A stretch of 52,235 nucleotides of DNA from a virus (IMGVR_UViG_3300046003_002393:1-52235); one strand, 5' to 3'. Counted from the first letter of the stretch, positions 6,326-45,679 are shown. Made by a program: numbers and translations. Notes: a model not told the origin generated them from the letters alone.

Positions 6326-9300
6326 ATGGGGAATCTCGACGATGCAATCCTTGACGAAATCATCGCTCAACGCGGTTCAGGAGTACCTCCCCAAAGTATC
6401 CCAGGGACTTTAGCTCCTTCACCCCCTGCAAGCGCACAGAGGGCGAATCCCGACGATGCAATTCTTGACGAGATCATCGCTCAACGCGACCCCAACGCCG
6501 CGACTGCGGCGAGAGTACAGCAAGCCCTGGGCGACGCGGAAGGCAAGAAGCCCGAAGACGAAGCGCGACGCGCTCAACTTGCGGAGCAGCTAGGCACTGT
6601 ACCCGGCTTGCTACCCTCTATCCCCGAAGCCGAAGCGGAACTCAGGCGTAAGCAACTTCCGACACAAGCGGCAGACCTTGCGGCCAACTCTCCGAAGACA
6701 GCCAATTGGTCTTTGGTTCCGGGGCACACGGCCAGAGCAGGAACATTGGGACTCACGGCTCTCGCTAAGTTAGAGGAGTCGTTCCCCTCCATTGGATACC
6801 CGGCAACAAAACTTCGATCGGGTCTCGCTTCAGCCTCCGCAGGTACCGCAAAGTTAATCGACGATCTTGCGTCGTCCATATACAACCACGTTTACGGGGG
6901 GTACGAAGACCTGAAGGCCAAGCACAGAGCCGATGCGGGGATACCTAAACTGAACCCTCACGACACCTTCATGGGCCGCCTAGCCAAGAGTGAGCAAGAT
7001 AGAAGCGAATCCCTCGCAGCGCGTGCGGATATTATTGATCCTAGCCACAAAGACAAGAAGTACGCTGTCGGATGGAGTGACGAAAACGCGGCGTATAAAG
7101 ACCCGATGAAGATGTTCGGAGACGCTCTTCAATCCCTGCCGAGTACCGCCTTACTAATCGCTGCGAGCGTTGCGTCTAGGGGCGCGGCGGTGGAAGCGCG
7201 TCTTACAAGTTTAGCTGAAAGTGCCGCAGCGGGTATCGCTGAAAGCGTAGCAGCGGCAACCGCGACCAAAGCAGCGATTGCCGCTGCATCGAAGACTATG
7301 GCGATCTTCCAAGGCATAGGTGAGGGGGTTCTGTCCTACGCCCAAAACTCACTATCTACCACCTCTGAGGTGGAGAAGATGGCCTATGACAAGATCGCGA
7401 GCAGCCCGACACTTCAGAAGTACATCAAGATGGGTTACGGGCCTGACGTAGCGCAAGAACTAACTGCGCGTGAAGCCGGGCAGCAATCGGGTATCAGAGG
7501 CGGAGCCTTGACGGGGTTGATAGCCTTCATAGGCGGAAAGTTCACAGGTAAGTTTATCGGTGAAGGTGGCGCTTTCCTCCCCCGTTTTGGTAAGGGGGCG
7601 ATCAACGAAGCCCTTGTGGAAGCCCCCCAAGGTGGCCAAGAACAATGGCAGACCAACCTCGCTATCCGCGAGCACGCGGATAAGACACGCCAACCGGGTG
7701 AAGGAGTGCTTGAGGCTACGGTACAAGGGGCGGTATTAGGACCGATAATAGGTGGCCCGATTGCGGGTTTTGCGGGTAAACACACCCAAGCACAACAAGC
7801 TGTAACTGACCGCGATACACTAAACAAACTTGCGCTTGACGCAGCGGGTAATCCTGTTCGCGAACACTCTCCCAAACCGTACCGAGACTTCATCGACTCT
7901 CTGACAGAGGGGAGACCGGTGCGAGAAGTATTCATCGACACGAATATCCTCCGCGATGTGTTCGCACAAGCAGGAGTAACTGAGAGGGAGTTGACCACAG
8001 TATTCCCCGAGGTCGCCGCGCAGTTAGCCGATGAAGCCAACACCGAAGGGTTTGTCAGTATCAAGACTTCCGACTTGATCACAGGGATTAAGACCCCTGA
8101 GATTCTAAAGTCGGTGCTGGATAACGCTCGGGTTCAGACCGATGGTGAGATGGGTATGACCTTCGCGGAAGCTGAGGCGTTCTTTCAGACTCAGAACGAA
8201 GGCTTAACCCGTGCTCAAGTTAAGGCCGCTGAAGTGCAAGCCGCCGCGAAGCAACACGCTCAAGATATCGCAGAAATCCGCCAAACGATTACCGATGAGC
8301 TAGTCGCGACAGGACGATACGATAGGACCATAGCGGCGACGAATGCGGTGCCCATCACGGCGTTCTACGAACAACGCGCTAGGGACTTCAACGCTGGCCG
8401 CGCTAAGGAGGACTTCACAACAGCGAAGCAGTTGTTTGAACAGTATCCGTATAAGGCGCAGGGTGAAGCGAGTAAATCCATCGGAGAAAACTTCGCGCAG
8501 ACGTCGAGGCTGGAAGACTTCTCCGACCCGAATACCTTCTATCGGGTGATTCGCGGAGATAAAGCATTCCAAGATATTCTTGATACCGGCACGGTCAGAA
8601 CAGACTCTACTAAAAAGACTGGACTAGATAGGCCAACCCTGTTCCCATCGTTCTCTAAAGGTGGCGTGTCAGAGTCCTATGCTGAAGGTGAAGATAACCA
8701 CTACGTTATTACTTCCACCGATTCTTCTATTCAACCCTCCAAGAAGGGCAGACACGGAAAAGGCACCACGATGTTCCCGACTGATCTGGCGGGAAATCAT
8801 CTACCAAGCATAGAAGGCAGTAAAGTCAACGTGTATAAGCACACTGGCAAGGGCAACTATGAATTGGTGTACTCCAACGGAAAGCAAGTTACCCAAGGCG
8901 GTGAGAAGGGTTCGTTCAATCAAGGAGGCGCAGCCACCCCTAGTATCCCAGAACAGTTCTACAGCCAGCTACGCAAAGTATTCCGCGATGCGCCTGAAAA
9001 GATATTCACCGGCGGTGCACAGGTCAAGGCTTGGCTGGCCTCTAATCATGGCAAGTTGGGTATCAAGAAAGAAGAGATATTCTGGTCAGGGATAAACGAG
9101 TACCTTGATATTACAGGCAAGGTAAGCAAGGCGGATGTGCTGGCGTTCCTTGACGGTAACGGGGCTAAGGTTGAAGTGAAGATGCTTGGTAAAGAGCCAA
9201 CTAATGCGGCCGAATTCAAAAAACGAGAAGATGAATTAGATGACCTGCGTGACCGAGGGGGGCGTATATCCCATGATGAGTGGCGACGACGCATGACCGA

Positions 9301-12300
9301 GTTACAAAAAGAGTTTGGCTATGATGAAAACGGTAAACCTTTAGACAAAACAAAATTCGCCCAATACCAACTCCCCGGCGGGACTAACTACAGGGAAATG
9401 CTGATTACGTTGCCTTCAAAGAAGGTTCAGCAGGTTGATGTTATGGGGCGGGAGGAACTATCCGCGTGGTACGAAAAAGAAGTCGGATATAGCCCTATTG
9501 AAGAAGACCCGCAAATATCCACAGATGCGTTGCGCGAATTGGTGCGAGCATACGATGCTGAAAATGGTGCGCAGACATCCCCAACGGTCACGTCAGATTT
9601 CAGGTCATCCCACTTCGACCAACCCAACATAGCCGCCCACATCCGCATGAATGACAGGGTAGGCGCGAATGGCGAGAAGATATTATTTATTGAGGAAGTG
9701 CAGTCAGATTGGGGGCAGAAGGGGAAGAAGGAAGGGTTCTCAAAGGTTGCTGATAAGTCAGAGTTGGACGCCATGAAGGAAGAAATGGCCGCGCTCAACA
9801 GAAGGGCAATTAGTGGGCCAAACTTAAATCAAGCAGAGTACGCACGCCTTGATGAACTTATCCGTCTGACTAAAGCAGGGGTATCCTCAACAGCTAACAC
9901 ACCCGGCGTACCATCCGCCCCTTTCGTAACCGACACAAAAGCATGGGCAAGCCTAGCCATGAAGCACGTCATCCAGCAAGCCGTAGAAGGTGGCTATGAC
10001 TCCGTGGCGTGGACGAATGGCGAGCAACAGTTTGATCGCTGGGGCAGTGAAGAAATAGCATGGGTCAAAGAGGGTAAAGGATGGCGTGTTTCAGCTAAAG
10101 AACAGGTTGGAGGTAACGCTGGCGGGGTTGATCTTGAAGGGGCTGCTAGGGCGCGAGGAATACTTAACGAGGAGACTGGCAAGGTTGTCACATCAAAAGA
10201 GCAGCTTCGTTCAATCGTAGCTACTGTGTTAGCGCGTGAGAACAATGATACGGCGATAGATAAAATAGCTGATCGTACATGGGAGCGTATGCAGTCCGAG
10301 GATGCTGGTACTACCATGCCGAGGCGAGAAGGAATGAAAGGCTACTACGATGCCATCCTGCCCCAAGTAGTAAGCGGCATATTCAAGCAGTTGAAGGTTG
10401 AGGGGAAGGTTGAGAGTGTTGAAGTTAGGGGCGGCTACGCCCGTGACAGTAGCGGTATACCTTCACGGTATAAAGAGCTTACTGAGCAACCAGCCTTCAC
10501 CATCACCCCAGAACTAGCAGCCAAAGTCACAAACGAAGGAATGCCTTTCTTCCAAGCTAACAACGCTGAGTTCAATCCTGCAACGCTGATGTCCACGTTC
10601 TATGCGGGTGCGAATCTGTCCAGCATTATTCACGAATCGGGACACTTCTATCTGGAGATGATGGAGCGCCTGGCCAACCGCCCAGACGCGCCTCAGAAGA
10701 TCAAGGATGACTTCAACCTGTACATGGAGTGGTTCGGGATAGCCCCCGAACAATGGGCGGGTATGGATAACGCGGCGCGTACTCCGTATCACGAACAATT
10801 CGCACTGTCTCAGGAGTTGTGGATGATAGAGGGCAAGTCGCCTACGTTGAATCCGAAGATGGAATCCGCCTTCGCTCGTTTCAGGCAGTGGATGTTGAGC
10901 GTCTACACATCGGCGGCGGAGTTCCTTCGGCAACACCCCTCGGCTGGAAAGCTGAACGATGAAGTGCGGGCCGCGTTCAGTCGTCTGATCGCCAGCGAAG
11001 AAGCGATTCGCGAAGCTGAAGTGGTGAGGGGTTACGTTCCCTTGTTCCAGACCGCTGCGGAGGCTGGCGTATCACAAGAAGCGTTCGACGAATACATGAA
11101 CCTTCGTGAGGAGTTCATCCAGAAGGCGATAAGCACCGCACAGAAGCGTTCCATGCGCGATCTGAAGTGGTTGTCGAACGCGCAGAGTGGTGCGTTGAAG
11201 AAGATTCAAGATCAGGCAGAGGGGTTAAGGTCAACGATCCGTGAGGAGGTAGCAGCGGAGGTGATGGCCGAACCGATCAACCGCGCAAGGCAAGCCATGC
11301 TTAACGGTGAAGTTAAAATGAACATCGAGGAGTTAGGTGCGATGGTCAATAGTCCAGCCGTAGCAGGGATGGTGGCTAAAGACGGGATGCCTTTGGATGT
11401 GGTGGCCGCGCAGTTCGGTTTCCCTTCTTCAGAGGCACTCCTTCAAGAGCTTGCCCATGCGGAGAATGCTCAAGAAAAGATCGCAGGATTGACCGATCAG
11501 CGCATGTTGCAGGAGCACGGCGATATGGTCGATGCGCGTGCTATCGAGAAAGCGATGTACGCTGCGGTGCAGAACGAGGCACTTACCCGCTTTCTGGCCA
11601 CCGGCTTGAAATTACTCTCCAAGTCGAGCCTACCGATCAGTCAGATCACGAAAGCGGCGAAGCTGAAGGCGCAAGAAACAATCTCCAAGATACCACTGAA
11701 TAAGTTACGCCCCGCATACTACGAAGCGGCGGAACGTAAAGCCCTCGCTACCGCCCTAGAGAACGCGGGGAAAGACCCCGCCAGAGCGATAGCGGCGCAA
11801 CAGGCGGCGATACTGAACCGTCAGCTTCACAAAGCGGCTACAGAGACTCAGGAGAGGATTCAGGCTGACGTCGCACGGCTGAAGCGAATCACTAAACCCG
11901 CAGCGCAAAAAGCGATGGGTGGAGAACACATACTGCAACTCAACGCGCTGATAGACCGCTTTGGTATCCGTAGCAAGAACACCCTACTTACTGAGGGCAC
12001 ACCGCGCAAGTCTCTTGCGGAATACGCCGCGACGGAACAGCTTCGCACTTTGAACGCCTACCTGGAGGGAGAAGCGAAGCGCCTCTCCGCGATCGCGCTC
12101 AACGTCCCGAGTTGGATTGCTGACGGTAGCATATCGCAGGACTACAACTCGCTGACAGTAGCGCAGTTCGACGAGTTGATGGATTCGGTGAAAGCGATAG
12201 AGCTACTCGCTAGGCGCGAGCGCGAACAGTACGCCGCTTTTCGCGGGGCAACTTTCGCAGAAGCGAAGGCGAAGAACCTTGCGGTATTCAGGAAGAATTT

Positions 12301-14356
12301 CCCCAAGCTATTCCTCCCGAACGGTCAACTAAAGCCAACCGTGACAGACCCACGGCATAGCGTTGCAAATTCTTTAGGCGACACTTCGGATGCCGTACAA
12401 GCTGCGCTCTCAAGTTCGGAAGCGATAGTGAGTATCCTCGAAGGTGGAAAAGTCGGAGACTTGTTCTACTCCTTGATATGGCCGATGAGTTCACGGAACG
12501 ACTGGAAAGTTGCTCGGATGGAGGAGATATTCAAGGCGGTGCAACCTCTGCTCGACCAGTACAATCCGCTTGAACAAATAGCGTTCACACGCAAAGATAT
12601 CGGTACAGAGGCGCTTGGATTCGTAATGACCCGCGAGGCGGCTCTCACTGTCACGCTTTATCATGGCAGTGAAACGGGTCAGGATAGACTGAGCAATCAC
12701 ACGCTCACCAACGGTAAGCGATTGGATGTCGCTACGCAGCAGAAAGTCATCGACTTATTGGATGCGCGGGATATTAAGTTGGCAAACGGTTTGTGGGCGG
12801 TGTTCGATAAAACTCTGTGGCCTGAGCTAAAGGCGCTGGATGAACGGACTAAAGGCAAGGGCGCTCCGAAGGTTGAAGCAATGTCTCACAAGGCAAAGAA
12901 CGGAGACCTCACCGGCGGGTACTATGAGATTAAGTACGACACGGAAGAGAGCGCGACCCCTGGGAATGAAGCCAGCGCGGTAGCTGAGATGATGTCGGGA
13001 CAAGCCAGTGGGAGAAGGGTCTCCACGGCTCAAGGAACCAGCATTGCGCGGGAGGAGCACACCAAGTACCGTCCTCGCTTGGATTTGGGCGTGTTCTTCG
13101 AGACCGTCAACAAGGTGGTGAACGATCTGGCGTACCGTGAAGTTGTGGCCGACACCCAACGCATGTTGCTCGACCCGGACATAGAGACGGTGATCAAGAC
13201 TGCGGGATCGAAAGTGGAGTACCAAACCTTGCAGCACCGCGTTGGCGCGATGGTTATGGGAGCGCAACTCCCCTCAGGGCCTTTCGAGAAGGCGGCGGAT
13301 TTAGCAAGAAAAAATACTTCCGTTGTGCTTCTCTCAGGGATATGGACAGGATTGCAGAACTACACGAACTTGAGCGCGGTAGCCGATGAACTAGGCACTG
13401 CGAACGTCGCGTGGGAAACTCTCAGGATGCACAGTCCGATGGCCATATCCGCGTTTCGCTTTGGCATGAAGAACTCTGTCTTCTTGCGCAACTATCATCT
13501 TAGCTTCGACCGTACCGTGCAGGAGAACAGCAAGAAGCTGACATCGAAGCAGAAGTTCATGCCCAACATGTCCACATGGTTGTGGTTCATGGGTAAGATT
13601 AACCAGATCGTAGCTTCGATAACATGGAACGCCGCGTACAAGAAGGGGATGGCTCTAAACCAGAACGACCATAACGTGTCGGTCATCTACGCCGATAACA
13701 GGACGAGAAAACTTGTTGGGTCTGGGCGCGATGCTGATGTCACCAAGATCGCAGAGGGACACTGGCTTCCGTTGTTGAACATGATGTACAGCTTCTTCAA
13801 CTCACAGTTAATGATACTGATGGAGAAGTCAACACTGCTCAAGCGCACACTGAAGAGCGATGAGGAGACAGCGGCGTTCAAAGCCAAAGCCGTTGCGCTA
13901 TACGCGAAGTCATGGCTTATGATCGTGGCTATCCCTGCGATACTGGGGGACATGGCCTTGGGCGCGTTCAGGGGCGATCCAGATAAGGACGACGAAGATA
14001 AGTTGACTCACTACTTGAAAGCGATTGGGCTGTATAACATCTCATTCATTCCAGGTGGAGGCTCGGTCGGGGCTTTCCTATACCGTAAAGGTCTTGACAT
14101 GGACTCTTACGGACTCAAGATTTCCCCCGTCGAGGCGGCTATCACAGGAGTCGCTGCGGGGGCTGGCTCCGCAGTAGACATCTGGAACGATGAGGGCGAC
14201 ATCAAGGATGTGGGCAACGAGATAATGGCGTTGAGCTATATGCTCGGCCTTCCAGGGAGCTTCGTCAAGAATGCCGTTGTTGGAGGGTACGCCTACGCTA
14301 ATGAGCAAGCGGGACCAGAAGCACTACTCTTCGGGCCGCCGAAGGTTCCGAGGTGA
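6326..14356 (+). CDS. Giant internal virion / DNA ejection protein (gp16-like position; large polyvalent-type)
   Basis: 2676 aa; HESGH zincin-like motif at 10631-10645; central globular cassettes (LPGGTNYRE, SHFDQPN, FIEEVQSDW); hydrophobic C-terminal helices; last of three ejection genes before the tail fibre. Confidence 0.75.
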   Translation: MGNLDDAILDEIIAQRGSGVPPQSIPGTLAPSPPASAQRANPDDAILDEIIAQRDPNAATAARVQQALGDAEGKKPEDEARRAQLAEQLGTVPGLLPSIPEAEAELRRKQLPTQAADLAANSPKTANWSLVPGHTARAGTLGLTALAKLEESFPSIGYPATKLRSGLASASAGTAKLIDDLASSIYNHVYGGYEDLKAKHRADAGIPKLNPHDTFMGRLAKSEQDRSESLAARADIIDPSHKDKKYAVGWSDENAAYKDPMKMFGDALQSLPSTALLIAASVASRGAAVEARLTSLAESAAAGIAESVAAATATKAAIAAASKTMAIFQGIGEGVLSYAQNSLSTTSEVEKMAYDKIASSPTLQKYIKMGYGPDVAQELTAREAGQQSGIRGGALTGLIAFIGGKFTGKFIGEGGAFLPRFGKGAINEALVEAPQGGQEQWQTNLAIREHADKTRQPGEGVLEATVQGAVLGPIIGGPIAGFAGKHTQAQQAVTDRDTLNKLALDAAGNPVREHSPKPYRDFIDSLTEGRPVREVFIDTNILRDVFAQAGVTERELTTVFPEVAAQLADEANTEGFVSIKTSDLITGIKTPEILKSVLDNARVQTDGEMGMTFAEAEAFFQTQNEGLTRAQVKAAEVQAAAKQHAQDIAEIRQTITDELVATGRYDRTIAATNAVPITAFYEQRARDFNAGRAKEDFTTAKQLFEQYPYKAQGEASKSIGENFAQTSRLEDFSDPNTFYRVIRGDKAFQDILDTGTVRTDSTKKTGLDRPTLFPSFSKGGVSESYAEGEDNHYVITSTDSSIQPSKKGRHGKGTTMFPTDLAGNHLPSIEGSKVNVYKHTGKGNYELVYSNGKQVTQGGEKGSFNQGGAATPSIPEQFYSQLRKVFRDAPEKIFTGGAQVKAWLASNHGKLGIKKEEIFWSGINEYLDITGKVSKADVLAFLDGNGAKVEVKMLGKEPTNAAEFKKREDELDDLRDRGGRISHDEWRRRMTELQKEFGYDENGKPLDKTKFAQYQLPGGTNYREMLITLPSKKVQQVDVMGREELSAWYEKEVGYSPIEEDPQISTDALRELVRAYDAENGAQTSPTVTSDFRSSHFDQPNIAAHIRMNDRVGANGEKILFIEEVQSDWGQKGKKEGFSKVADKSELDAMKEEMAALNRRAISGPNLNQAEYARLDELIRLTKAGVSSTANTPGVPSAPFVTDTKAWASLAMKHVIQQAVEGGYDSVAWTNGEQQFDRWGSEEIAWVKEGKGWRVSAKEQVGGNAGGVDLEGAARARGILNEETGKVVTSKEQLRSIVATVLARENNDTAIDKIADRTWERMQSEDAGTTMPRREGMKGYYDAILPQVVSGIFKQLKVEGKVESVEVRGGYARDSSGIPSRYKELTEQPAFTITPELAAKVTNEGMPFFQANNAEFNPATLMSTFYAGANLSSIIHESGHFYLEMMERLANRPDAPQKIKDDFNLYMEWFGIAPEQWAGMDNAARTPYHEQFALSQELWMIEGKSPTLNPKMESAFARFRQWMLSVYTSAAEFLRQHPSAGKLNDEVRAAFSRLIASEEAIREAEVVRGYVPLFQTAAEAGVSQEAFDEYMNLREEFIQKAISTAQKRSMRDLKWLSNAQSGALKKIQDQAEGLRSTIREEVAAEVMAEPINRARQAMLNGEVKMNIEELGAMVNSPAVAGMVAKDGMPLDVVAAQFGFPSSEALLQELAHAENAQEKIAGLTDQRMLQEHGDMVDARAIEKAMYAAVQNEALTRFLATGLKLLSKSSLPISQITKAAKLKAQETISKIPLNKLRPAYYEAAERKALATALENAGKDPARAIAAQQAAILNRQLHKAATETQERIQADVARLKRITKPAAQKAMGGEHILQLNALIDRFGIRSKNTLLTEGTPRKSLAEYAATEQLRTLNAYLEGEAKRLSAIALNVPSWIADGSISQDYNSLTVAQFDELMDSVKAIELLARREREQYAAFRGATFAEAKAKNLAVFRKNFPKLFLPNGQLKPTVTDPRHSVANSLGDTSDAVQAALSSSEAIVSILEGGKVGDLFYSLIWPMSSRNDWKVARMEEIFKAVQPLLDQYNPLEQIAFTRKDIGTEALGFVMTREAALTVTLYHGSETGQDRLSNHTLTNGKRLDVATQQKVIDLLDARDIKLANGLWAVFDKTLWPELKALDERTKGKGAPKVEAMSHKAKNGDLTGGYYEIKYDTEESATPGNEASAVAEMMSGQASGRRVSTAQGTSIAREEHTKYRPRLDLGVFFETVNKVVNDLAYREVVADTQRMLLDPDIETVIKTAGSKVEYQTLQHRVGAMVMGAQLPSGPFEKAADLARKNTSVVLLSGIWTGLQNYTNLSAVADELGTANVAWETLRMHSPMAISAFRFGMKNSVFLRNYHLSFDRTVQENSKKLTSKQKFMPNMSTWLWFMGKINQIVASITWNAAYKKGMALNQNDHNVSVIYADNRTRKLVGSGRDADVTKIAEGHWLPLLNMMYSFFNSQLMILMEKSTLLKRTLKSDEETAAFKAKAVALYAKSWLMIVAIPAILGDMALGAFRGDPDKDDEDKLTHYLKAIGLYNISFIPGGGSVGAFLYRKGLDMDSYGLKISPVEAAITGVAAGAGSAVDIWNDEGDIKDVGNEIMALSYMLGLPGSFVKNAVVGGYAYANEQAGPEALLFGPPKVPR

Positions 14357-16140: not shown

Positions 16141-16455
16141 ATGAGTGATAATGTTGGAGATGATGATAGCTACCGGGACAGGTGGCCAGACCAGCACAAC
16201 AGACGGAAGAGCGACAATAAATTCTCAGTTAGTGCCGCATTTAATATCACACATATTATAGCTACTATAGGCCTGATAGTTTCCATGTTCAGTTGGGCGA
16301 CAGAAGTTAAAACCATCATCGCAACCAATACCGCCGAGATTGCTAATCTGAAAGCGGAGCGCGTGCGTGAAACCGCCGAGTTAAGAACAACCGTGCGGGA
16401 GATTGATGCTAAGGTGACGCGGCTCCTCGAGCGTGGGAATGGTGACAGGCAATGA
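16141..16455 (+). CDS. Single-TM membrane protein with coiled coil (holin/antiholin-like)
   Basis: RRKSD motif, one hydrophobic helix, ATGA overlap with the endolysin. Confidence 0.55.
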   Translation: MSDNVGDDDSYRDRWPDQHNRRKSDNKFSVSAAFNITHIIATIGLIVSMFSWATEVKTIIATNTAEIANLKAERVRETAELRTTVREIDAKVTRLLERGNGDRQ

Positions 16456-16868
16456 TTAACAGTAGACAGATCGCTGACCTTCACCCCAAGGTGCAGGAGT
16501 TGTGTAAGAAATTCATTGCTGAGTGCATGGTCGACGGTATTGATGTCATCATCACTTCCACCTACCGCGACAAGGAATCGCAAGACGCGCTGTACGCACA
16601 GGGCAGGGCTACTGCTGGTGCTATCGTAACAAACGCTCATGGCGGCTGGTCATACCATAACTACCGACTGGCTTTCGACTTCGCGCCTATCCAGAATGGA
16701 AAGATCGACTGGAACAACACTGCCTTGTGGGAGAAGTGCGGGCGTATTGCTGAGGACGTTGGATTGGAGTGGGCGGGACGATGGGAGCATAATCGCGAAA
16801 TGGCGCACTGCCAATTTACTGATGGGCTGAAGATAGCGCAACTTTTTAACGGAGAAATGATCTCGTGA
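16452..16868 (+). CDS. Endolysin, M15 family L-Ala-D-Glu peptidase
   Basis: TYRDKESQDALYAQGR, SYHNYRLAFD (SxHxxxxAxD), GLEWAGRW...EMAH. Confidence 0.92.
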   Translation: MINSRQIADLHPKVQELCKKFIAECMVDGIDVIITSTYRDKESQDALYAQGRATAGAIVTNAHGGWSYHNYRLAFDFAPIQNGKIDWNNTALWEKCGRIAEDVGLEWAGRWEHNREMAHCQFTDGLKIAQLFNGEMIS

Positions 16869-16944
16869 AGAATTTTATAGAACGTGTTAAAGGCTGGCTC
16901 ATTGCACTCAAAGTTTGGTTCCGCACTTTTCCAAAAGAGAAATA

Positions 16945-17175
16945 ATGGCATTTTGGGAGTGGGTAGATAAGCGGCAGATCGTCAGGCGTGGGGTGTTGTT
17001 GTTCACTCTGGTGATGACTTATCTCGCATTCAGACTCGGTTACGACTTTGCACTGGTGTCCAGGTTCGATGGGGTTGGAACCGCCGCTGTTATAGCGGCC
17101 TTCACCGCGCCCGTGGCGTACCTGCAGAAATCCGCGCTCGATTCGTACTTAGCCAACAAAGGAAAACCAGAATGA
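16945..17175 (+). CDS. Putative holin (two TM helices)
   Basis: Two hydrophobic segments, located between endolysin and spanins; ATG at 16945. Confidence 0.6.
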   Translation: MAFWEWVDKRQIVRRGVLLFTLVMTYLAFRLGYDFALVSRFDGVGTAAVIAAFTAPVAYLQKSALDSYLANKGKPE

Positions 17176-17669: not shown

Positions 17670-19487
17670 TCAAAGCAAGTCAGAAATAACATCTATCGTT
17701 TCCATCATCGCGATTCTTTCGCCCAATATCCGCATACAATTTACCGCCATACTGTTGCCCAAAGCCTTGTACCGCGCTGAGTTTGATGCACCAGGTATGT
17801 TGGTATAACCGTGGGTAAGGCTAAGATTTATTGCGTATGAATTGCCGTTGTGCATTTGCTCTGGAATGAATGAACTTATGACACTCACGACAAAGCAACA
17901 CAAGGTTTGAATGCTCTGTTCGTAACTCTGGAAATTTGACCCAACTTCCGATGTGATGAACTTCATGCAGTCGTTCTTTGTAGACATGAACTTTGTGGCA
18001 TCGCTGACAAGTTGCTCGATCTCTTGTCCAGATACGTCTACAGACTTGCTTCCATATCCGTGATGAGAAGAATTGTTGATGTTCTGTGGTAATGCCGCCC
18101 CTCCAACAATGGTGTTTGTCCCCAACAAGGTGTGCAGTCTTACATTTAATTGAACAAAATCGTCTAGTTGAATAGGCAGGCGACACCATTTTTGTTTGTC
18201 CGCAAGATTGACAGACAAGAGCAACTTTCCTTGATTGTGTATTTCCAGAGTTCGTGCCTCTAAATTTAGAAGCGCAGACACCTCCGCAAGTTCGGAAGTC
18301 TTGTGATTGCTTTGTCGTGAATTCACCTCCGCAAATGATGCAATTTTTTGTGATTCGCTTACTACGGCATTGCCAGCAACATTTGGCAACTTGGGACATT
18401 GCGTTTCCGCAAGCGCATTGGTTTTTTGATGGTCTGAGCATACGCGAAGTATAACAGTTTTCGTTACCTCAGGAAACCCCTGCAATCTTTCGCACTCAAG
18501 CGGAGTTAATCGGCGTACTCGCATTTGTGAGCAGACAGCCATTTGGTTATCACCAGGTTCTTTGCGAATAGTCCCTGTGTGCTCTTCGTAAGCAACCGCA
18601 TGAACATCCGTCTTGGTTAGCGTATAGGATGACCCTGTATCATCGTAGCCAGTGCCATTCCCGCCATTCTCAGGTGCGCGTCCGATTGTGTTTCCAGCTA
18701 AGGCATAAGTCGGTACAAACAGCGGTGCGCCCTCGTTGATATGCTGATTTTCCAATCCTTGTTTATCTCCGAAGTGTGCGTTTAACGTGCTTGCGATTTC
18801 AGCCGGCCATTTCTTCACTGGCAAGATATGTCCACAGGCTGCGTCTTGCGCTCCGATACTAACGCCAGTGCGCGCTCCAATTGTTCCGGCAAATTCTTGC
18901 CCCTTACTTCTGCTCGGCGGAGGATTCCCGCACAGGCTTTCGGAGTCAAAAAGAACTGCGGCTGCACTTCGCCAGTCTCCAAGACATCCGATAACGAACA
19001 CACGCCTTCGTCTTTGCGGGACGGCTCTAGGGTGCTCATGTGTTCTGCTGAATTGAGCATCAAGAACTCGGTAGGCGAACCCATAGCCGAGTTGCCCCAA
19101 CCCTCCAAGGAAGGTTCCAAAATCCCTTCCGCCGTTACTCGACAAGACCCCCGGTACGTTTTCCCAGACAATCCATTTCGGCTTATATCGATCAGCAATT
19201 GCGAGGTAGATGAGCATGAGGTTGCCACGCGGGTCATCCAATCCTTTTCGCAAACCTGCGACTGAGAATGATTGACAAGGGGTTCCGCCGACAAGAACAT
19301 TGATAGTTGCATCAGGCCACTCCTTAAATTTAGTCATGTCGCCTAGGTTCGGGACGCTTGGGTAGTGGTGCGCCAACACTTTGCAAGGAAAAGGTTCTAT
19401 CTCTGAAAACCCGATAGGGTTCCAACCAAGCGGATGCCAAGCGCATGTAGCTGCTTCGATTCCACTGCATACCGAAAGGTAATTCAC
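17670..19487 (-). CDS. DNA (cytosine-5) methyltransferase with a 219-aa in-frame insertion
   Basis: Motif I SVCSGIEA, IV GGTPCQSFS, VI WENVPG, VIII PQRRRRVF, IX RRLTPLECERLQGFPE, X RYKALGNSM; insertion lies between FPE and GYTNIPG. Confidence 0.92.
   Translation of the reverse strand: MNYLSVCSGIEAATCAWHPLGWNPIGFSEIEPFPCKVLAHHYPSVPNLGDMTKFKEWPDATINVLVGGTPCQSFSVAGLRKGLDDPRGNLMLIYLAIADRYKPKWIVWENVPGVLSSNGGRDFGTFLGGLGQLGYGFAYRVLDAQFSRTHEHPRAVPQRRRRVFVIGCLGDWRSAAAVLFDSESLCGNPPPSRSKGQEFAGTIGARTGVSIGAQDAACGHILPVKKWPAEIASTLNAHFGDKQGLENQHINEGAPLFVPTYALAGNTIGRAPENGGNGTGYDDTGSSYTLTKTDVHAVAYEEHTGTIRKEPGDNQMAVCSQMRVRRLTPLECERLQGFPEVTKTVILRVCSDHQKTNALAETQCPKLPNVAGNAVVSESQKIASFAEVNSRQSNHKTSELAEVSALLNLEARTLEIHNQGKLLLSVNLADKQKWCRLPIQLDDFVQLNVRLHTLLGTNTIVGGAALPQNINNSSHHGYGSKSVDVSGQEIEQLVSDATKFMSTKNDCMKFITSEVGSNFQSYEQSIQTLCCFVVSVISSFIPEQMHNGNSYAINLSLTHGYTNIPGASNSARYKALGNSMAVNCMRILGERIAMMETIDVISDLL
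17811..18467 (-). mobile_element. 657-bp in-frame insertion carrying an out-of-frame HNH gene
   Basis: Removal restores canonical LQGFPE|GYTNIPGASNSARYKALGNS; length is a multiple of 3; no stop in the host frame. Confidence 0.8.
17821..18441 (-). CDS. Zinc-finger HNH endonuclease nested in the methyltransferase (alternative frame)
   Basis: Multiple CxxC units; RDRATCQRC...EVHHIGSW...SNLVLLCRECHKFIH HNH motif. Confidence 0.88.
   Translation of the reverse strand: MLRPSKNQCACGNAMSQVAKCCWQCRSKRITKNCIICGGEFTTKQSQDFRTCGGVCASKFRGTNSGNTQSRKVALVCQSCGQTKMVSPAYSTRRFCSIKCKTAHLVGDKHHCWRGGITTEHQQFFSSRIWKQVCRRIWTRDRATCQRCHKVHVYKERLHEVHHIGSWVKFPELRTEHSNLVLLCRECHKFIHSRANAQRQFIRNKS
18815..19312 (-). CDS. 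Overprinted ORF resembling the M.EcoHK31I beta polypeptide
   Basis: TAAGGAG SD 7 nt before ATG; C-terminal CSLSDVLETG...FFLTPKACAGILRRAEVRGKNLP..LERAL; +1 frame inside the MTase. Confidence 0.72.
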   Translation of the reverse strand: MQLSMFLSAEPLVNHSQSQVCEKDWMTRVATSCSSTSQLLIDISRNGLSGKTYRGSCRVTAEGILEPSLEGWGNSAMGSPTEFLMLNSAEHMSTLEPSRKDEGVCSLSDVLETGEVQPQFFLTPKACAGILRRAEVRGKNLPEQLERALALVSERKTQPVDISCQ

Positions 19488-41462: not shown

Positions 41463-43106
41463 ATGATAGTCCGTCGTATCCCGTGGACTAGCCAGCCTCA
41501 GATAGCGGTTCCGATAGATTCATCGAACACGCTGTTTGACGTGTCTAAGATAACTGCTGTCGTCAATCCTGGGTTTGGAACGTACAAGAGGGACGCTCGA
41601 ACAGGTAAGTTATATACTGTATCTACCAACCCCGCCCAAGCGATGAATGCTTTAGGTAAGGGTATTAGATGGGTAGGAGGTACTAATGACTATATACAAT
41701 TAGATGCTGACGCAGATAATGTATTAGATACTGTTAGCTGTTCTATGCTGATAGCTACTGTCAGGAATGCTACTAATAATGGTAATGATATATCTTATGG
41801 ATATGAAGATGGAGGTACTGGTAATAGAGTTCAAGCACACTTTCCTCTAGATACTACTGCTACTATATATTGGGATTTTGGTAATGGTACTGGTGGTGTT
41901 GGTGGAGGTAGAGTTACTGCAAATCCTGGGGCTGCTACATGGGCTATTGGAAGAATTAATATATGGGGTTTTTATGCTGGTAGTAGAGGTAGAGAAATAT
42001 GGTTAAATGGAAGGTTAATAGCGTCTGATATAACAGCTACTAAAATACGTAGTGCTACTACTCAAGGATTTAGAATAGGAAGTGGTGCATCTAATTCTAG
42101 CAGCGCATCTGCACCTTATCACTCTGATAATCTATTTGTATTATCTAAAGAAGGTTGGAGCCAAGCTGCTTTTGCAGGATTAACTGCTAATCCTTGGCGG
42201 ATATTTGAGCCTAAACAGGTTACAGTCTTCGCGGCACCTTACCCCCCAACGGTCATAGGCCTTACCGCCCCGACTCTCGGACTCACCCCCCAAGATATCG
42301 CGCAAACGAGGACGCAAAATCTCACCGCCGCTGCGCTTACTTTAACACCGAACAGTGTAACCGCGCTATGGACTATCCGCCCCGCGACTGCAGATTTCGC
42401 CTTTAACCGAGAAGTTTTCCAGATCGCATCAGCGAATAACTTAGGGGTTTCGACTTGTGACTTCACGGCTTTAGAGATAAGTGCTCAATCGGTAGCATCA
42501 CTAGGCACTGCTGCGATGGACTTCGTAGCCAACGACGTGCAGTTAGCGATTACCAATAACCTAGATGTTGGCAACTTAATCCTCGCCGGTCAGGATACTC
42601 AGCAAGTCGCCAGCACGACATTGGGCACCGCGACGATGGACTTCGTGGGTAAAAACATCACTGAGATACAGGTTGTTGCTCTTGGTTCTGCCGCGCTGAA
42701 CTTTACCGCGCAGACTTCCAACCCAGTCGCGGTAGTTACGCTCTCTACCGCTGCGATGAATATGGTTGTGCTCGATATCAGACCGGAGAACTCACCGCTT
42801 GGAACGGTGCAGGTGATGACGATATCCGCGATGGACTTCGCGGTTAACCCTATCAGCAACACTGCCAGCACGACGCTCTCCGCTGCGGCGATGAACGATG
42901 TGGCTTACGAATTGCACCTCGTATCGAGCAACGTGCTTACCGCGCCTACGTTTGATCTAGCGCCTCAACCGCTGACCGTTACCCAAGCCGCCGTAGTAGT
43001 GGCACTTGTTCCCGCGACGTTCGACTTCGTACCGGGCGCGATACAAGCGGCAGGCACGTCATCGGTGGGCGACAGACGACGCATTATGATGGGAGTGGGC
43101 AAGTAA
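41463..43106 (+). CDS. Fibre-like protein: lectin/LamG-like N-domain plus ~20-aa repeat shaft
   Basis: WTSQPQ..VPID N-terminus; EIWLNG, FRIGS, NPWRIF; repeats of LGTAAMDFVA type. Confidence 0.6.
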   Translation: MIVRRIPWTSQPQIAVPIDSSNTLFDVSKITAVVNPGFGTYKRDARTGKLYTVSTNPAQAMNALGKGIRWVGGTNDYIQLDADADNVLDTVSCSMLIATVRNATNNGNDISYGYEDGGTGNRVQAHFPLDTTATIYWDFGNGTGGVGGGRVTANPGAATWAIGRINIWGFYAGSRGREIWLNGRLIASDITATKIRSATTQGFRIGSGASNSSSASAPYHSDNLFVLSKEGWSQAAFAGLTANPWRIFEPKQVTVFAAPYPPTVIGLTAPTLGLTPQDIAQTRTQNLTAAALTLTPNSVTALWTIRPATADFAFNREVFQIASANNLGVSTCDFTALEISAQSVASLGTAAMDFVANDVQLAITNNLDVGNLILAGQDTQQVASTTLGTATMDFVGKNITEIQVVALGSAALNFTAQTSNPVAVVTLSTAAMNMVVLDIRPENSPLGTVQVMTISAMDFAVNPISNTASTTLSAAAMNDVAYELHLVSSNVLTAPTFDLAPQPLTVTQAAVVVALVPATFDFVPGAIQAAGTSSVGDRRRIMMGVGK

Positions 43107-45679
43107 TGCGTGTTGAGGACATGCTGAAGATACTAGCCCAAACACCGGGAGGGGGTCGCGATGAAGTATCGCGACTCGCGCTTGAGGCTACCGCACATAT
43201 GAAGTGGGTTCCGAACCCCGGGCCGCAAACCGAGGCTTACTTTTCACCGGCTGACGAGATATTTTTCGGTGGGCAAGCAGGCGGGGGAAAATCGGATTTA
43301 GAAATCGGACTCGCTATTAACGAACACGATCGGTCACTGCTCCTCCGCAGAACGAATAAAGAAGCCGATGGGCTGGCCGACCGTATGACCGAGATTCTCG
43401 GCAACCGCGATGGGTACAACTCCCAGAAGGGAACATGGAGGATACCGCACAATGGAAACATCGTGGAGATCGGTGGGTGCCAGCTAGAAACGGATAAGCA
43501 ACGGTATAAGGGGAACCCGCATAGTTTGATCTGTGTGGGTAGAGAAACGCCAGTGCTTATGGCAGATGGGTCTTATAAGGCAATCTCCGCTATAAACGTA
43601 GGGGAGTCGGTGACTACACTTGAAGGCCCCCGGCGGGTACTGAAATCTTTCCCCGTCGCGGCAAAACCTTCGGTGGAGTTGCGCGTTCAACTACCGTGCG
43701 GAGCCGTTCATCGCCAGGTGCAATCGACGACCCATAAAGTTCTTTCGCATAAGGAGTGGGTTGCCCCCGGTACACAAGGCGTTTCCCGTGGCCACCTGTC
43801 GGCCCTTGCTTCCAAGCAATGTCATACTCAGCGAGTACCACGCGCCAAACGATCATCCCTACTTGGGTTAGTCGAGCGAGCTCTCTGTACGACAAGTCGG
43901 TTGGGGCGAAGTACCTTGCCACCTCTGCAAGTTGGTTACGTGTCGTCGGGCAAGAAGGGTCAATTGGACGGGTGCGCATATAAGGCGCGAGAACTTCATC
44001 AAAGTGTAGTCGTAAGGTCTGGTGCGCGACGCCTAAATGCTTGGCAGCAGCTTTTATGTTGCCTGTCGTCTTCAACGCTTCTGAGACAATCGAGGAGGTT
44101 AAATGCACCCTCTTTCCATCGTTCATCTTCTTGGCATGATAACTACGATGCGCTGAAAAAGTCATTACTTCTAAGTTCTCAGGTCTGTTATCAGTCCTTA
44201 TCTCATTTTTGTGGTGAACACATTCCTTCTCTGAGGACTTCGTACTCCACACCAAAGGGCGCCCTATCATATCCTCTCCCACAAGACGGTGTTGGAATAC
44301 CCAACCCCACATATTCGCCTCGCGATGAAAAGGATGGAATTCTAAAACGTAACCACCCATCAAGCACGTATGTCCACCCTTATACGAAGGAAATACGTCA
44401 AACGGAGTGCGTGCTTTCTTTAGCTTCATGGTCAGCGGTTCCTATAGGCGATATTGAGTTGTTCGACATCGAGGTTGAAGAAGTAAACCATTTTATCACA
44501 AAAGGCGGGATAGTCAATAAGAACTGTTTCGATGAAGTGAGCGATTTCACCGAATCGCAATACGTTTTTATCAATGCGTGGAACCGCTCCGCGAACCCCA
44601 AACAGCGGTGCCGTATCGTCGCTGCAGGGAACCCCCCGACACGTCCTGAAGGTCTGTGGGTTGTGCGCCGATGGGCAGCATGGCTCGATCCGAAGTACGC
44701 GAATCCCGCTAGTCCGGGAGAGTTACGCTGGTACACCACGGGCGAAGACGGTAAGGAAATCGAGGTCGACGGGATAGGTCCACACCGTATCTATGGCGAA
44801 CAGGTGTTCGCAAGGTCGCGCACCTTCATCCCCTCCCAGTTATCCGACAATCCCGATCTCTCAGCCACGAACTACGCGGCGTCCTTAGCGGGTCTGCCGG
44901 AAGAACTACGGCTAGCTTACCGCGATGGCGACTTCAGTGTGGGTCTCCGCGATGAGCCGTGGCAGATAATCCCCTCGGCATGGGTTGTGGAAGCCCAAGC
45001 CCGTTGGACGAAGAATCCCCCCTACGGCGTGCCGATGTGCTGTATCGGAGTGGACGTAGCGCAAGGAGGTAACGATAACACCGTGCTCGCGATACGACAT
45101 GATGGTTGGTTCGCTCCGTTGATCGTTGTCCCCGGAGCCGAGACCAAGGATGGCCCAAGCGTGGCGGGTAAGGTAGTAGCGAACCGCCGGGACGAGTGCC
45201 GCGTTGTGGTTGACATCGGCGGCGGGTGGGGTGGTGAAGCCTATGCACACATGAAGGCCAACGGCATAGACGCGGTGGGCTACATGGGCATCAAGGCGTC
45301 CACGAGGCGCACGCGGGACAGGCAGTTGGCGTTCACCAATGTCCGTACCGAAGCGTACTGGCGGTTCCGTGAAGCCCTCGATCCTGCTCAACCTGGCGGG
45401 TCGAACATCAAGCTCCCGAGCGACCCCGAGGTGGTATCCGATCTCTGCGCGGCGATGTACGAAGTGACCTCACGGGGCATCAAGCTGGAAAGCAAAGAAG
45501 ATGTCTGCAAGAAGTTAAGCCGATCACCCGATAAAGGCGATGCTATTGTCATGGCGTGGTGGGACGGGTATAAGGTAGAACAGCTTCAAGACGGGGATTG
45601 GAAGGGAGTTAAAGGTGGTAGAATGACTCCTAAAGTGATTATGGGACGTGCAGCGGCGCGAGCGAACAAGAGAAGATGA
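43106..45679 (+). CDS. terL: Terminase large subunit containing a 331-aa intein
   Basis: PNPGPQ, GGQAGGGKS (Walker A), spliced Walker B SLI|CFDE, AGNPP, GVDVAQGGND, SPDKGDA nuclease motifs. Confidence 0.93.
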   Translation: MRVEDMLKILAQTPGGGRDEVSRLALEATAHMKWVPNPGPQTEAYFSPADEIFFGGQAGGGKSDLEIGLAINEHDRSLLLRRTNKEADGLADRMTEILGNRDGYNSQKGTWRIPHNGNIVEIGGCQLETDKQRYKGNPHSLICVGRETPVLMADGSYKAISAINVGESVTTLEGPRRVLKSFPVAAKPSVELRVQLPCGAVHRQVQSTTHKVLSHKEWVAPGTQGVSRGHLSALASKQCHTQRVPRAKRSSLLGLVERALCTTSRLGRSTLPPLQVGYVSSGKKGQLDGCAYKARELHQSVVVRSGARRLNAWQQLLCCLSSSTLLRQSRRLNAPSFHRSSSWHDNYDALKKSLLLSSQVCYQSLSHFCGEHIPSLRTSYSTPKGALSYPLPQDGVGIPNPTYSPRDEKDGILKRNHPSSTYVHPYTKEIRQTECVLSLASWSAVPIGDIELFDIEVEEVNHFITKGGIVNKNCFDEVSDFTESQYVFINAWNRSANPKQRCRIVAAGNPPTRPEGLWVVRRWAAWLDPKYANPASPGELRWYTTGEDGKEIEVDGIGPHRIYGEQVFARSRTFIPSQLSDNPDLSATNYAASLAGLPEELRLAYRDGDFSVGLRDEPWQIIPSAWVVEAQARWTKNPPYGVPMCCIGVDVAQGGNDNTVLAIRHDGWFAPLIVVPGAETKDGPSVAGKVVANRRDECRVVVDIGGGWGGEAYAHMKANGIDAVGYMGIKASTRRTRDRQLAFTNVRTEAYWRFREALDPAQPGGSNIKLPSDPEVVSDLCAAMYEVTSRGIKLESKEDVCKKLSRSPDKGDAIVMAWWDGYKVEQLQDGDWKGVKGGRMTPKVIMGRAAARANKRR
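43532..44524 (+). mobile_element. Intein (Hint domain) in the TerL Walker B motif
   Basis: Block A CVGRETPVLMADG; block B STTHKV; blocks F/G LFDIEVEEVNHFITKGGIVNKN; +1 extein Cys; removal gives GNPHSLICFDEVSDF. Confidence 0.9.
43614..44429 (-). CDS. HNH homing endonuclease encoded antisense within the intein
   Basis: GYV, QHRLV...IGRPL...ECVHHKNEIRTDNRPENLEVM...H...H (HNH_3-like); HTH NIKAAAKHLGVAHQTLR; AGGA SD ~10 nt before ATG. Confidence 0.87.
   Translation of the reverse strand: MKLKKARTPFDVFPSYKGGHTCLMGGYVLEFHPFHREANMWGWVFQHRLVGEDMIGRPLVWSTKSSEKECVHHKNEIRTDNRPENLEVMTFSAHRSYHAKKMNDGKRVHLTSSIVSEALKTTGNIKAAAKHLGVAHQTLRLHFDEVLAPYMRTRPIDPSCPTTRNQLAEVARYFAPTDLSYRELARLTQVGMIVWRVVLAEYDIAWKQGPTGGHGKRLVYRGQPTPYAKELYGSSIAPGDERLRTVVERATPPKVLPRRGKISVPAGGLQV

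Follow-up and report, generated by a model that had tools for sequence, protein, structure and literature searches.

The IMG/VR virus record IMGVR_UViG_3300046003_002393, rated 100% complete and analysed here as a whole (52,235 bp, hereafter the window), has a gene for the large subunit of terminase (terL) that is interrupted by an intein of 331 amino acids. Inside the intein, on the opposite DNA strand, lies a gene for a 271-residue protein with an HNH nuclease domain. We consider it very probable that the two together make up a mobile class-1 terL intein, in which the homing endonuclease is a separate gene read from the other strand. The initial annotation of this stretch had suggested that mobility is supplied by an independently expressed antisense gene, while the intein splices out the filler encoded opposite to it. 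Of this proposal, the separate gene, the open and unconserved filler, and the gene's own translation signals stand; its premise that full-length inteins always carry the nuclease in frame does not, as antisense and out-of-frame intein nucleases are already described by Gosselin et al. (10.1101/2025.01.02.630785).

The intein and the gene on its opposite strand

The terL precursor frame (43106..45679, plus strand) encodes 857 amino acids plus stop, and removal of the intein would leave a spliced product of 526 residues (857-331). The precursor matches the terminase large subunit families phrog_979 (1.9e-22) and phrog_2 (2e-20), and uninterrupted phage TerL proteins align to it as two pieces flanking the insert. 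The intein corresponds to precursor residues 143-473 (43532..44524, plus strand); it begins with CVGRETPVLMADG and ends with GIVNKN, after which comes Cys. Its length and its position within SLI|CFDE are as initially annotated. On the same strand, the last N-extein residues S-L-I (43523..43531) form the N side of a split hhhhDE, or Walker B-like, motif, and the C-extein starts with C-F-D-E (44525..44536), which provides the +1 Cys and the acidic pair of that motif; all four residues (C474, F475, D476 and E477) are invariant in alignments A1 and A3. The insertion is exact and in frame, because intein-less relatives read SLI-CFDE contiguously. In the intein-less proteins P0173, P0175, P0176 and P0177 (90, 86, 82 and 77% overall identity, respectively), ...PHSLI runs straight into CFDEVSDF, and in these four, as well as in P0178 and P0252, ...LI (or ...LK) directly precedes CFDE. 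On each side of the site, the natural empty-site DNA of locus L084 differs from the window flank at 2 of about 19 nucleotides. Further upstream is the P-loop GGQAGGGK (Walker A; 43268..43291, plus strand), where G55, G56, A58, G59, G60, G61 and K62 are invariant in A3. The Walker A and Walker B labels are assigned from the motifs alone, and a TerL profile had no match in PDB at E<=0.01.

The intein looks like a sandwich, with two well-conserved slices and a filling that differs from one relative to the next. The limits of the three parts (residues 1-85, 86-274 and 275-331) are drawn from alignment A2, which shows conserved ends, an unalignable middle and a short linker in mini-inteins. A2 contains 26 inteins, i.e., that of the window and those from 25 unique loci, out of 40 viral ones, in which the N boundary was found by motif. 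The N-terminal Hint half (43532..43786, plus strand) contains Cys1, block A, and block B with His68; C1, T6, G13, G24, T29, L30, G32, H68 and W76 are invariant in A2. The C-terminal half (44354..44524, plus strand) contains the HPY motif, blocks F and G, and Asn331; here P283, Y284, N329 and N331 are invariant and H282 and H320 nearly so, and the NCBIfam model TIGR01443 (intein_Cterm) matches with 17.3 bits, above its cut-off of 15.6.

In an AlphaFold2 model made with alignment A2, the two intein ends fold as a Hint domain. The predicted local confidence (pLDDT) is 87-98 at residues 1-80 and about 275-331, with 87-96 in the C-terminal half, and below 50 at residues 83-265. Among 48,161 PDB representatives, the model matches the gp41-1 intein with Z of 16.4, root-mean-square deviation (rmsd) of 1.8 and 115 residues aligned; further matches are MchDnaB-1 (Z 15.9), NpuDnaB (Z 15.6) and Mtu RecA (Z 15.4), and all 29 structures with Z>=8 are intein, Hint, bacterial intein-like (BIL), hedgehog or Vint domains. 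Profile comparison with PDB agrees with this, giving the gp41-1 intein at 4.6e-6 and PI-SceI at 6.7e-6. The window intein would thus share its fold with gp41-1 and other mini-inteins (6riz, 6riy, 4o1r, 2imz; Z 15.4-16.4, rmsd 1.8-2.9, 115-122 residues aligned), which, however, have short linkers, whereas here the halves are joined by about 190 amino acids of apparently unselected sequence.

This filler (43787..44353, plus strand) is simply the open terL frame across the antisense gene; it has no family match and low pLDDT. Ser, Leu and Arg make up 38.6% of it, versus 19% of the exteins, and its identity between relatives is 14-61%, versus 41-94% in the Hint halves. Hidden Markov model scans of the sense frames of the window intein and of 26 related inteins detected, in every case, Hint families only and no nuclease family in the filler, and the window frame has 0 stops, in agreement with the initial description of a middle part that lacks both endonuclease motifs and stop codons.

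The antisense gene (43614..44429, minus strand, stop at 43614..43616) overlaps the Hint-N codons by about 57 codons and the Hint-C codons by about 26. The protein matches HNH_3 (PF13392) with 30.4 bits versus a gathering score of 24.8, as well as PHROG HNH families (best 1.6e-15), and its ATG (44429..44427) is preceded at 10 nt by an AGGA Shine-Dalgarno (SD) core (44443..44440; the whole signal at 44427..44443, minus strand), so that the coherent protein with an HNH domain, a helix-turn-helix (HTH) and an AGGA of its own that had been read off this strand is confirmed. The HNH_3 core as delimited by Pfam spans residues 68-93 (44151..44228, minus strand). H72, H73, N81, N85 and H94 are invariant in 54 HNH sequences, in all 54 of which HNH_3 is detected; from the HNH motif, we take these residues to be catalytic. 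The HTH region, residues 114-148 (43986..44090, minus strand), is presumed to bind DNA; it matches HTH_8, DUF2089-HTH, HTH_30 and NUMOD1, all below cut-off, and relatives show other HTH families, for example HTH_Tnp_ISL3 (17/54) and HTH_23 (11/54). Altogether 585 relatives of the HNH protein were found, with no second copy in the window genome and, by sequence, no match in PDB at E<=0.1. Upstream of the gene, a sigma-70-like promoter is predicted at 44490..44517 (minus strand), made of TTGACT, 16 nt, and a TG-extended TAAAAT, with 10 of 12 consensus matches plus the TG.

At 44354..44429 both strands are conserved, the invariant H-P-Y of Hint-C standing opposite the conserved ...FPSYKGG... with which HNH begins. 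As mini-inteins without HNH keep HPY, the Hint part of this double constraint probably came first. The GC content is 0.46 over 44000..44600, the HNH-proximal half of the intein, versus 0.59-0.62 in downstream terL, a dip that fits foreign origin of the cassette.

Distribution and spread of the cassette

A search of 5.8 billion proteins with the intein region recovered 52 precursors, many of which have about 850 amino acids and cover 100% of the intein at 26-75% identity. Among 1.84 billion representatives, the A2 profile matches 4099 proteins at E<=1e-3, 572 at E<=1e-10 and 202 at E<=1e-30; among the 150 matches listed, 126, mostly proteins of 750-900 amino acids, match it in one stretch from position 1 to at least 307. 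DNA loci were gathered with an alignment of 15 precursors, giving 40 viral, 2 bacterial-genome and 37 metagenome loci, 79 in all. After removal of duplicates 60 remain, and the strict junction motif is present in 53 of them; the seven with variant junctions stand outside the 53-locus count, and at least L017 and L066 among them carry HNH. A profile built from 48 of the listed HNH relatives matches in 33 of the 40 viral loci, always opposite to the terL strand. Among the strict-junction loci the HNH gene is antisense in 47/53 and on the sense strand in 0/53, and 46 of the 47 (all but L051) have the terL frame open, always in the same phase; four further viral loci with antisense HNH have terL likewise open (4/4). 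The six strict-junction loci that lack HNH are four mini-inteins (147-162 amino acids) and two truncated loci. Three mini-inteins of 147-151 amino acids are included in A2 and have the same ends joined by a short linker. The search for related terL alleles that the initial annotation recommended has therefore turned up all three forms: the empty site, the mini-intein, and the intein with antisense HNH.

Two loci come from bacterial records. The chromosome record of the cyanobacterium Stenomitos frigidus ULC029 (L042) has the HNH-bearing form at the same site, with terL open, and a metagenome-assembled genome of Oscillospiraceae (Bacillota; L043) has a mini-intein of 162 amino acids there.

The intein is present in some and absent from other alleles that are nearly identical otherwise. 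Thus, P0004 (1246 amino acids, with the intein) and P0178 (915 amino acids, without it) have identical C-exteins of 388 amino acids and N parts that are 98.9% identical, and differ by the 331-amino-acid intein. Sister pairs with and without the intein, P0002/P0173 and P0009/P0252, receive high local support in a FastTree phylogeny restricted to the 54 of 120 proteins kept by a motif filter, which put two long rows in the wrong class. The 120 nearest C-extein relatives comprise 109 intein-less proteins, 9 with the HNH-size form, 1 with a mini-intein and 1 partial. Among the closest relatives, extein and intein similarities are discordant: compared with the window cluster, P0003 is 0.97-0.99 identical in the exteins and 0.82-0.84 in the Hint halves, and the respective values for P0002 are 0.91-0.96 and 0.91-0.94. 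One candidate for an empty allele within a 90% cluster, P0421, was rejected, as it is actually a fragment that starts inside the filler.

Close terL relatives also have a second intein, of about 350-390 amino acids and with a LAGLIDADG_3 domain, directly after the P-loop Lys62 (equivalent of 43291/43292), which the window lacks. It is seen in P0003, P0004, P0174, P0178, L004, L018 and L044, and is independent of the HNH intein at the Walker B site: P0003 and P0004 have both, P0174 and P0178 have only the P-loop intein, and P0173 has neither.

Splicing, antisense transcription, and the activity and target of the nuclease, as we infer them from these data, would combine as follows. The terL mRNA would be translated through the entire 331-residue intein, the ends of which (about 85 and about 57 amino acids) would assemble into the Hint domain; Cys1, Asn331 and the +1 Cys would then splice out the whole insert, including the filler of about 190 amino acids that is a mere terL-frame reading of the antisense gene, and would restore a terminase of 526 amino acids with an intact ...SLICFDE. 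The HNH_3 and HTH protein would come from its own transcript, starting at the -10 element inside the block F codons, and would be translated from its own ATG and Shine-Dalgarno sequence inside the Hint-C codons. In a mixed infection, the nuclease would cut or nick an intein-less terL near the insertion site, and repair off the intein-bearing genome would copy the full cassette, i.e., both Hint halves, the antisense gene and its signals.

The HNH gene could, alternatively, be only a lodger, that is, a free-standing homing gene that once invaded the linker of a mini-intein and spreads by cutting HNH-less mini-intein alleles or nearby terL sequence, with the Hint domain as its safe harbour. We regard this as improbable, if worth serious attention. 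Mini-inteins with homologous Hint halves do exist at the same site; the nearest relatives of the HNH protein in cultured phages are free-standing and share the HNH domain only (42 records, 0 of which cover >=80% of the protein); and the Spearman correlation of Hint with HNH identity, 0.58, is not above that of Hint with extein identity, 0.69 (666 pairs, 37 loci). Such an origin has also been proposed for other non-canonical inteins in the text of Gosselin et al. (10.1101/2025.01.02.630785). On the other hand, the gene keeps a constant orientation and phase in 46 of 47 loci plus four of four more; with its promoter, SD and first codons lying within Hint-C codons, the HNH gene cannot move without a part of the intein; and the near-identical alleles described above differ by the whole 331-residue unit and not by HNH alone. 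The tree of 49 unique Hint domains points in the same direction, as the six mini-inteins in it are scattered among 43 HNH-bearing ones, so that six changes are needed and at least three of them are forced by well-supported branches, which repeated loss fits better than repeated capture. The scatter fits one capture of HNH, after which the gene was lost, with reversion to mini-inteins, repeatedly. DNA alignments of five pairs of mini and full inteins fall into 15-27 blocks, too diverged to show whether or not the mini-inteins are single clean deletions, and a further scan of loci for mini-inteins mostly returned the same contigs and no new one.

Selection and expression signals on the two strands

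The two overlapping frames were compared by counts of stops and substitutions. Over the HNH gene, the terL frame of the window has 0 stops, and the other two plus-strand frames have 12 and 9. In 20000 shuffles of synonymous codons in the HNH gene, the terL frame acquired 2-17 stops, with a mode of 9 and never 0; in 20000 shuffles of codon order, it was likewise never open. The frame is open in all 33 HNH-bearing viral loci (33/33), where shuffles lead one to expect 4.8-15.1 stops; none of 2000 shuffles was free of stops in 32 loci, and 4 of 2000 were in L003. The terL frame is open beyond chance, and it is kept open by selection. All three antisense phases can, by derivation, be kept open by synonymous choice, and the single phase shared by the loci points therefore to common descent and not to a necessity of coding.

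Nucleotide entropy at HNH codon positions 1, 2 and 3 is 1.23, 1.05 and 1.66 bits in 31 unique segments, HNH position 3 coinciding with terL position 2. Translated as HNH, the segments have a mean amino acid identity of 40%; translated as terL, they have 19%, and HNH is higher in 464 of 465 pairs. In L044, the closest locus with DNA, differences from the window at HNH positions 1, 2 and 3 number 59, 47 and 124. Read as HNH, the codons that changed split into 79 synonymous and 71 non-synonymous; read as terL, they split into 10 and 140. Values of dN/dS (NG86 method) are 0.16 and 1.89, respectively. The frame-wise comparison put forward in the initial annotation thus reveals purifying selection on the HNH frame and none on the intein frame that overlaps it. 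The dN/dS of the C-extein between the same two sequences was left unused, as the assumption of ungapped alignment failed and dS was saturated. This substitution pattern indicates that HNH is a working gene and that the filler is constrained only to avoid stops.

The protein sequence itself carries a trace of the same constraint. With the frames so aligned, the terL reading gains a stop wherever NTT, NCT or NTC in HNH is followed by a codon with A as its first base. Phe followed by Ile, Met, Thr, Asn or Lys (F-[IMTNK]) is the sole class of dipeptides that forces such a stop, while all others can avoid it synonymously. Among the 70 closest HNH proteins, such a dipeptide is seen once, with 68.7 expected; the following 50, most of which match only in the HNH domain, have 28, with 46.3 expected. 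F-[IMTNK] depletion is a footprint detectable from proteins only, and may be used for finding other hidden overlaps; the overlap itself is a clean natural case of antisense dual coding, in which selection acts on the protein made from one frame and, in the other, just on the absence of stops.

It is very unlikely that the antisense frame is a silent relic which looks conserved through shared ancestry or sense-strand constraint. Expression of HNH is, to be sure, deduced from sequence; L054 has an internal stop in HNH, in the HTH region, with terL still open, and one frameshift in L051 disrupts the two frames together, which may be an assembly error or a dead copy. Nevertheless, the sense filler is the less conserved of the two frames (19% versus 40% identity, 10 synonymous versus 140 non-synonymous codons), HNH has dN/dS of 0.16, its putative catalytic residues are invariant in 54 sequences, and its start position is conserved in 42 of 43 loci. 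The initial annotation had named a broken antisense gene in relatives as evidence against the proposal; the gene is intact in 45 of 47 loci, at a mean identity of about 40%.

The open frame bears as well on the notion that TerL is made without protein splicing in cis, either through a split intein that links two separately made polypeptides (a 'fractured gene') or after removal of the insert as RNA. Fractured genes with nuclease genes between split-intein halves do exist, one terminase among them, according to passages of Dassa et al. 2009 (PMC2677866). A split form, though, needs no open terL frame, and the frame is open in 46 of 47 loci versus 5-15 expected stops; the Hint blocks are in frame with both exteins; and an Rfam scan of 43000..45000 detected no intron family, the sole match being a microRNA model with 22 bits versus a gathering score of 73. 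Both variants appear to us most implausible. Equally hard to credit is a role for HNH as an accessory of terminase packaging instead of homing, as with HNH proteins next to the terminase genes of some cos phages: HNH genes commonly adjoin phage terminase genes, as noted in PMC3592412, but 109 of the 120 nearest terL relatives are without the intein and hence without HNH, the gene here is always inside the intein and antisense, and HNH_3 with HTH modules resembles homing and free-standing phage nucleases.

The start, SD and -10 positions of the HNH gene are conserved. We compared 48 unique HNH-bearing entries (47 loci and the window), of which 43 with the QHRLV anchor were used for counts of starts and SD. 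In 42 of these 43, a start codon (40 ATG, 2 TTG) is located 44-50 codons upstream of QHRLV, L051 being the exception. An SD core (AGGA, GGAG or GAGG) is found 4-17 nt before the candidate start in 26 of 43, versus 6.9 expected, and is often AGGAG, the reverse complement of the Thr-Pro codons in the TPIG motif of the intein. On the terL strand, the promoter-like site reads as the codons for GIVNKN and NHFIT (blocks F and G); in the region, 2 sigma-70-like sites were found versus 1.1 expected. The -10 variants in 47 HNH-bearing sequences are TATAAT (16), TATAGT (12), TAAAAT (5), TAAAGT (5), TGAAGT (3), TGTAAT (3), CATAAT (2) and TGAAAT (1). The A at -11 is the third base of the block F Tyr/Phe codon and is synonymous in terL. 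The T-ending codon that produces it is used in 40 of 47 loci, versus 19.5 expected from their own extein usage, and in just 1 of 5 HNH-less mini-inteins (Fisher p 0.005). The predicted 5' untranslated region of the HNH mRNA has no unusual structure (z 0.33), and terminator-like hairpins show no meaningful excess (3 versus 1.8 expected).

From these signals, we put the chances of a functional promoter embedded in the Hint-C codons at about even. Nuclease timing separate from late terminase expression, the suggestion of the initial annotation, is plausible, because there is a sigma-70-like site on the antisense strand inside Hint-C and its -11A is kept at a synonymous position. We would go only tentatively, and with slightly less than even confidence, as far as a fully self-contained homing cassette, in which the Hint-C codons double as the -10 element, the ribosome-binding site and the first nuclease codons on the other strand. 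If so, the Hint fold, the signals for transcription and translation, and the nuclease N-terminus would be packed into the same 170 bp or so; production of the nuclease would not depend on late terL expression and might take place early in infection, and antisense transcription across terL could delay or damp terminase synthesis.

A number of observations weigh against a mobile, splicing intein with an independently expressed nuclease. As for splicing, the Pfam family Hom_end_hint matches the first 41 intein residues at E of 4.6e-5, with 23.9 bits versus a gathering score of 32.1; the penultimate intein residue is Lys, Gln or Arg, and never His, in the 26 inteins of A2; and where block B normally has Thr, the window has Ser and the relatives vary. 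Some active inteins lack the block B Thr or the penultimate His. As for folding, an unselected insert of 190 amino acids might hinder it; the fillers contain 4-19 Cys (n=23), and by a charge-hydropathy test only 7 of 23 fall on the 'unfolded' side. As for expression, the SD core is absent in 17 of 43 loci; the -10 sequence is mostly dictated by conserved amino acids, and the block F motif is typical of inteins; neither the TG extension (ATC codon in 26 of 45, versus 23.9 expected) nor the -35 G (18 of 48, versus 17.5 expected) is enriched; and the tests of signal conservation ignore the kinship of loci, which inflates their p-values, with synonymous sites saturated at these distances. A check of RNA data pointed to one metatranscriptome with 5% of the sampled words, in which the contigs are unstranded, derive from a relative, and cover extein parts only, at 90-99% likeness; three other runs yielded no contig over this stretch. 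As for mobility, Hint identity tracks extein identity (the correlation of 0.69 given above), and much of the history is therefore vertical. This deep co-divergence suggests that transfer has taken place mostly between related terminases, as homing requires.

Related systems and genome context

The closest parallel is offered by the work of Gosselin, Arsenault and Gogarten (bioRxiv 10.1101/2025.01.02.630785), the text of which describes actinophage inteins with in-frame HNH, antisense LAGLIDADG, antisense VSR-like and out-of-frame EndoVII-like nucleases, many of them in terL, and credits antisense LAGLIDADG cases to Gorbalenya 1998 and Gogarten 2002. As described there, these inteins share with ours the opposite-strand nuclease frame between the splicing blocks, the in-frame middle without recognisable fold, and the frequent location in terL; origin by invasion of an intein by a free-standing nuclease gene, and continued transfer, are inferred there. 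The differences are that the antisense nuclease here is HNH_3 with HTH, whereas HNH is in frame only in the list given in that text; that the cassette here occurs in uncultivated non-actinophage viruses and in a cyanobacterial chromosome; and that about 57 and 26 codons of the nuclease frame here run into the splicing domain, while the published ones are said to 'typically lie outside'. The main text of that paper has 0 mentions of promoter or ribosome-binding signals. Our literature search found no antisense HNH in an intein beyond the cited papers; the supplementary tables of Gosselin et al. and Gorbalenya 1998 were outside its scope, and the tables might list such cases.

An out-of-frame (+2 ORF) LAGLIDADG nuclease is known from a cyanobacterial dnaX intein (Phillips, DeSimone, Gogarten, bioRxiv 10.64898/2026.09.14.751524). 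Both systems have overlapping frames, with low dN/dS in the nuclease frame and a raised one in the intein frame, SD motifs before the nuclease gene, and coexisting mini, full and empty alleles, and secondary invasion of a mini-intein is proposed for dnaX. There, however, the gene is cellular and the nuclease is LAGLIDADG in the +2 frame, whereas here an antisense HNH_3 resides in a phage terL. A published intein with Hint and HNH_3 in one polypeptide is likewise a single mobile element and, in the account available, self-excised in E. coli; in the present family, in contrast, no sense frame matches a nuclease family (0/26). Fractured genes resemble our case in having a nuclease gene of free-standing type at the usual position of the intein nuclease, in one instance in a terminase, but passages of Dassa et al. 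2009 (PMC2677866) describe the host gene as two ORFs, with GIY-YIG or Vsr-like nucleases, whereas here the host frame is held continuous by selection. The terL of CL131 was pursued as a lead, as its match began at residue 408, and was dropped: its insert is located after the P-loop and has no match to the HNH profile. The terL of PaV-LD is 535 amino acids long.

What appears to be new is the antisense use of HNH_3 by an intein, together with how large and conserved this family is and with the expression signals embedded in it. Intein nucleases encoded as separate overlapping genes, a rare class known for LAGLIDADG, VSR-like and EndoVII-like enzymes, are now extended to HNH_3, and the 202 protein clusters matched at E<=1e-30 show that the layout reaches beyond a handful of actinophages. 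The data fit an order of events in which the splicing domain came first, the nuclease was captured later, and repeated loss to mini-inteins followed. Gene callers report either an 857-amino-acid 'hypothetical protein' or the HNH gene, source records label these products 'hypothetical protein', and such terL genes may be mis-scored as containing decaying inteins. The Hint domain would seem to tolerate an arbitrary linker of about 190 amino acids, and the natural series of linkers may be of interest to protein engineers.

A hidden nuclease in an alternative frame of a stop-free insertion is also the hallmark of ShiLan, an HNH gene reported in PMC11855218 (Arsenault, Gosselin, Gogarten 2025) to be out of frame within an insertion in phage DNA methylase that is read through without stops. 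ShiLan, as described there, differs in having no splicing domain, the same strand, no detectable ribosome-binding site and a proposed GTG start, in place of Hint, antisense orientation, ATG and SD. The window has a similar layout of its own. In its C-5 cytosine methylase frame (17673..19487, minus strand, 605 amino acids), PF00145 covers residues 1-340 only, and phage relatives match this part only (of 1515 records, none covers >=80%). A Cys-rich protein of 206 amino acids, encoded in a different frame of the methylase insert on the same strand (17824..18441, minus strand), matches HNH PF01844 with 37.7 bits versus a cut-off of 21.4. The methylase frame has 0 stops across it, which lends weak support to a hidden overlap, as shuffles have 2.0 on average and zero in 274 of 5000. 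This is the ShiLan domain design reported for actinophage methylases in PMC11855218.

By PHROG scans, the window has the gene layout of a tailed phage. A plus-strand module encodes a small terminase-like protein, terL, an acetyltransferase, a portal-type adaptor, the major head protein, tail proteins and a virion protein of 2676 amino acids; the replication module is on the minus strand. The relatives of terL are in BPP-1-like, Acidovorax, Limnohabitans and Caulobacter phages (38-44% identity; of 120 cultured-phage records, 0 cover >=80% of the precursor), and the C-extein matches prophage terminases of Sphingomonas/Rhizorhabdus and Pseudomonas at 62-63%. The host of the virus is likely proteobacterial. 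At 16452..16865 (plus strand), longest-ORF picking favours two minus-strand ORFs (16173..16640 and 16664..16951) that have no family match, over a VanY/Peptidase_M15_4 protein of 138 amino acids, likely the endolysin. The 2676-amino-acid ORF (6326..14353, plus strand) strongly matches phrog_9880 (1.4e-191) and, weakly, families of DarB-like antirestriction proteins and of virion RNA polymerases.

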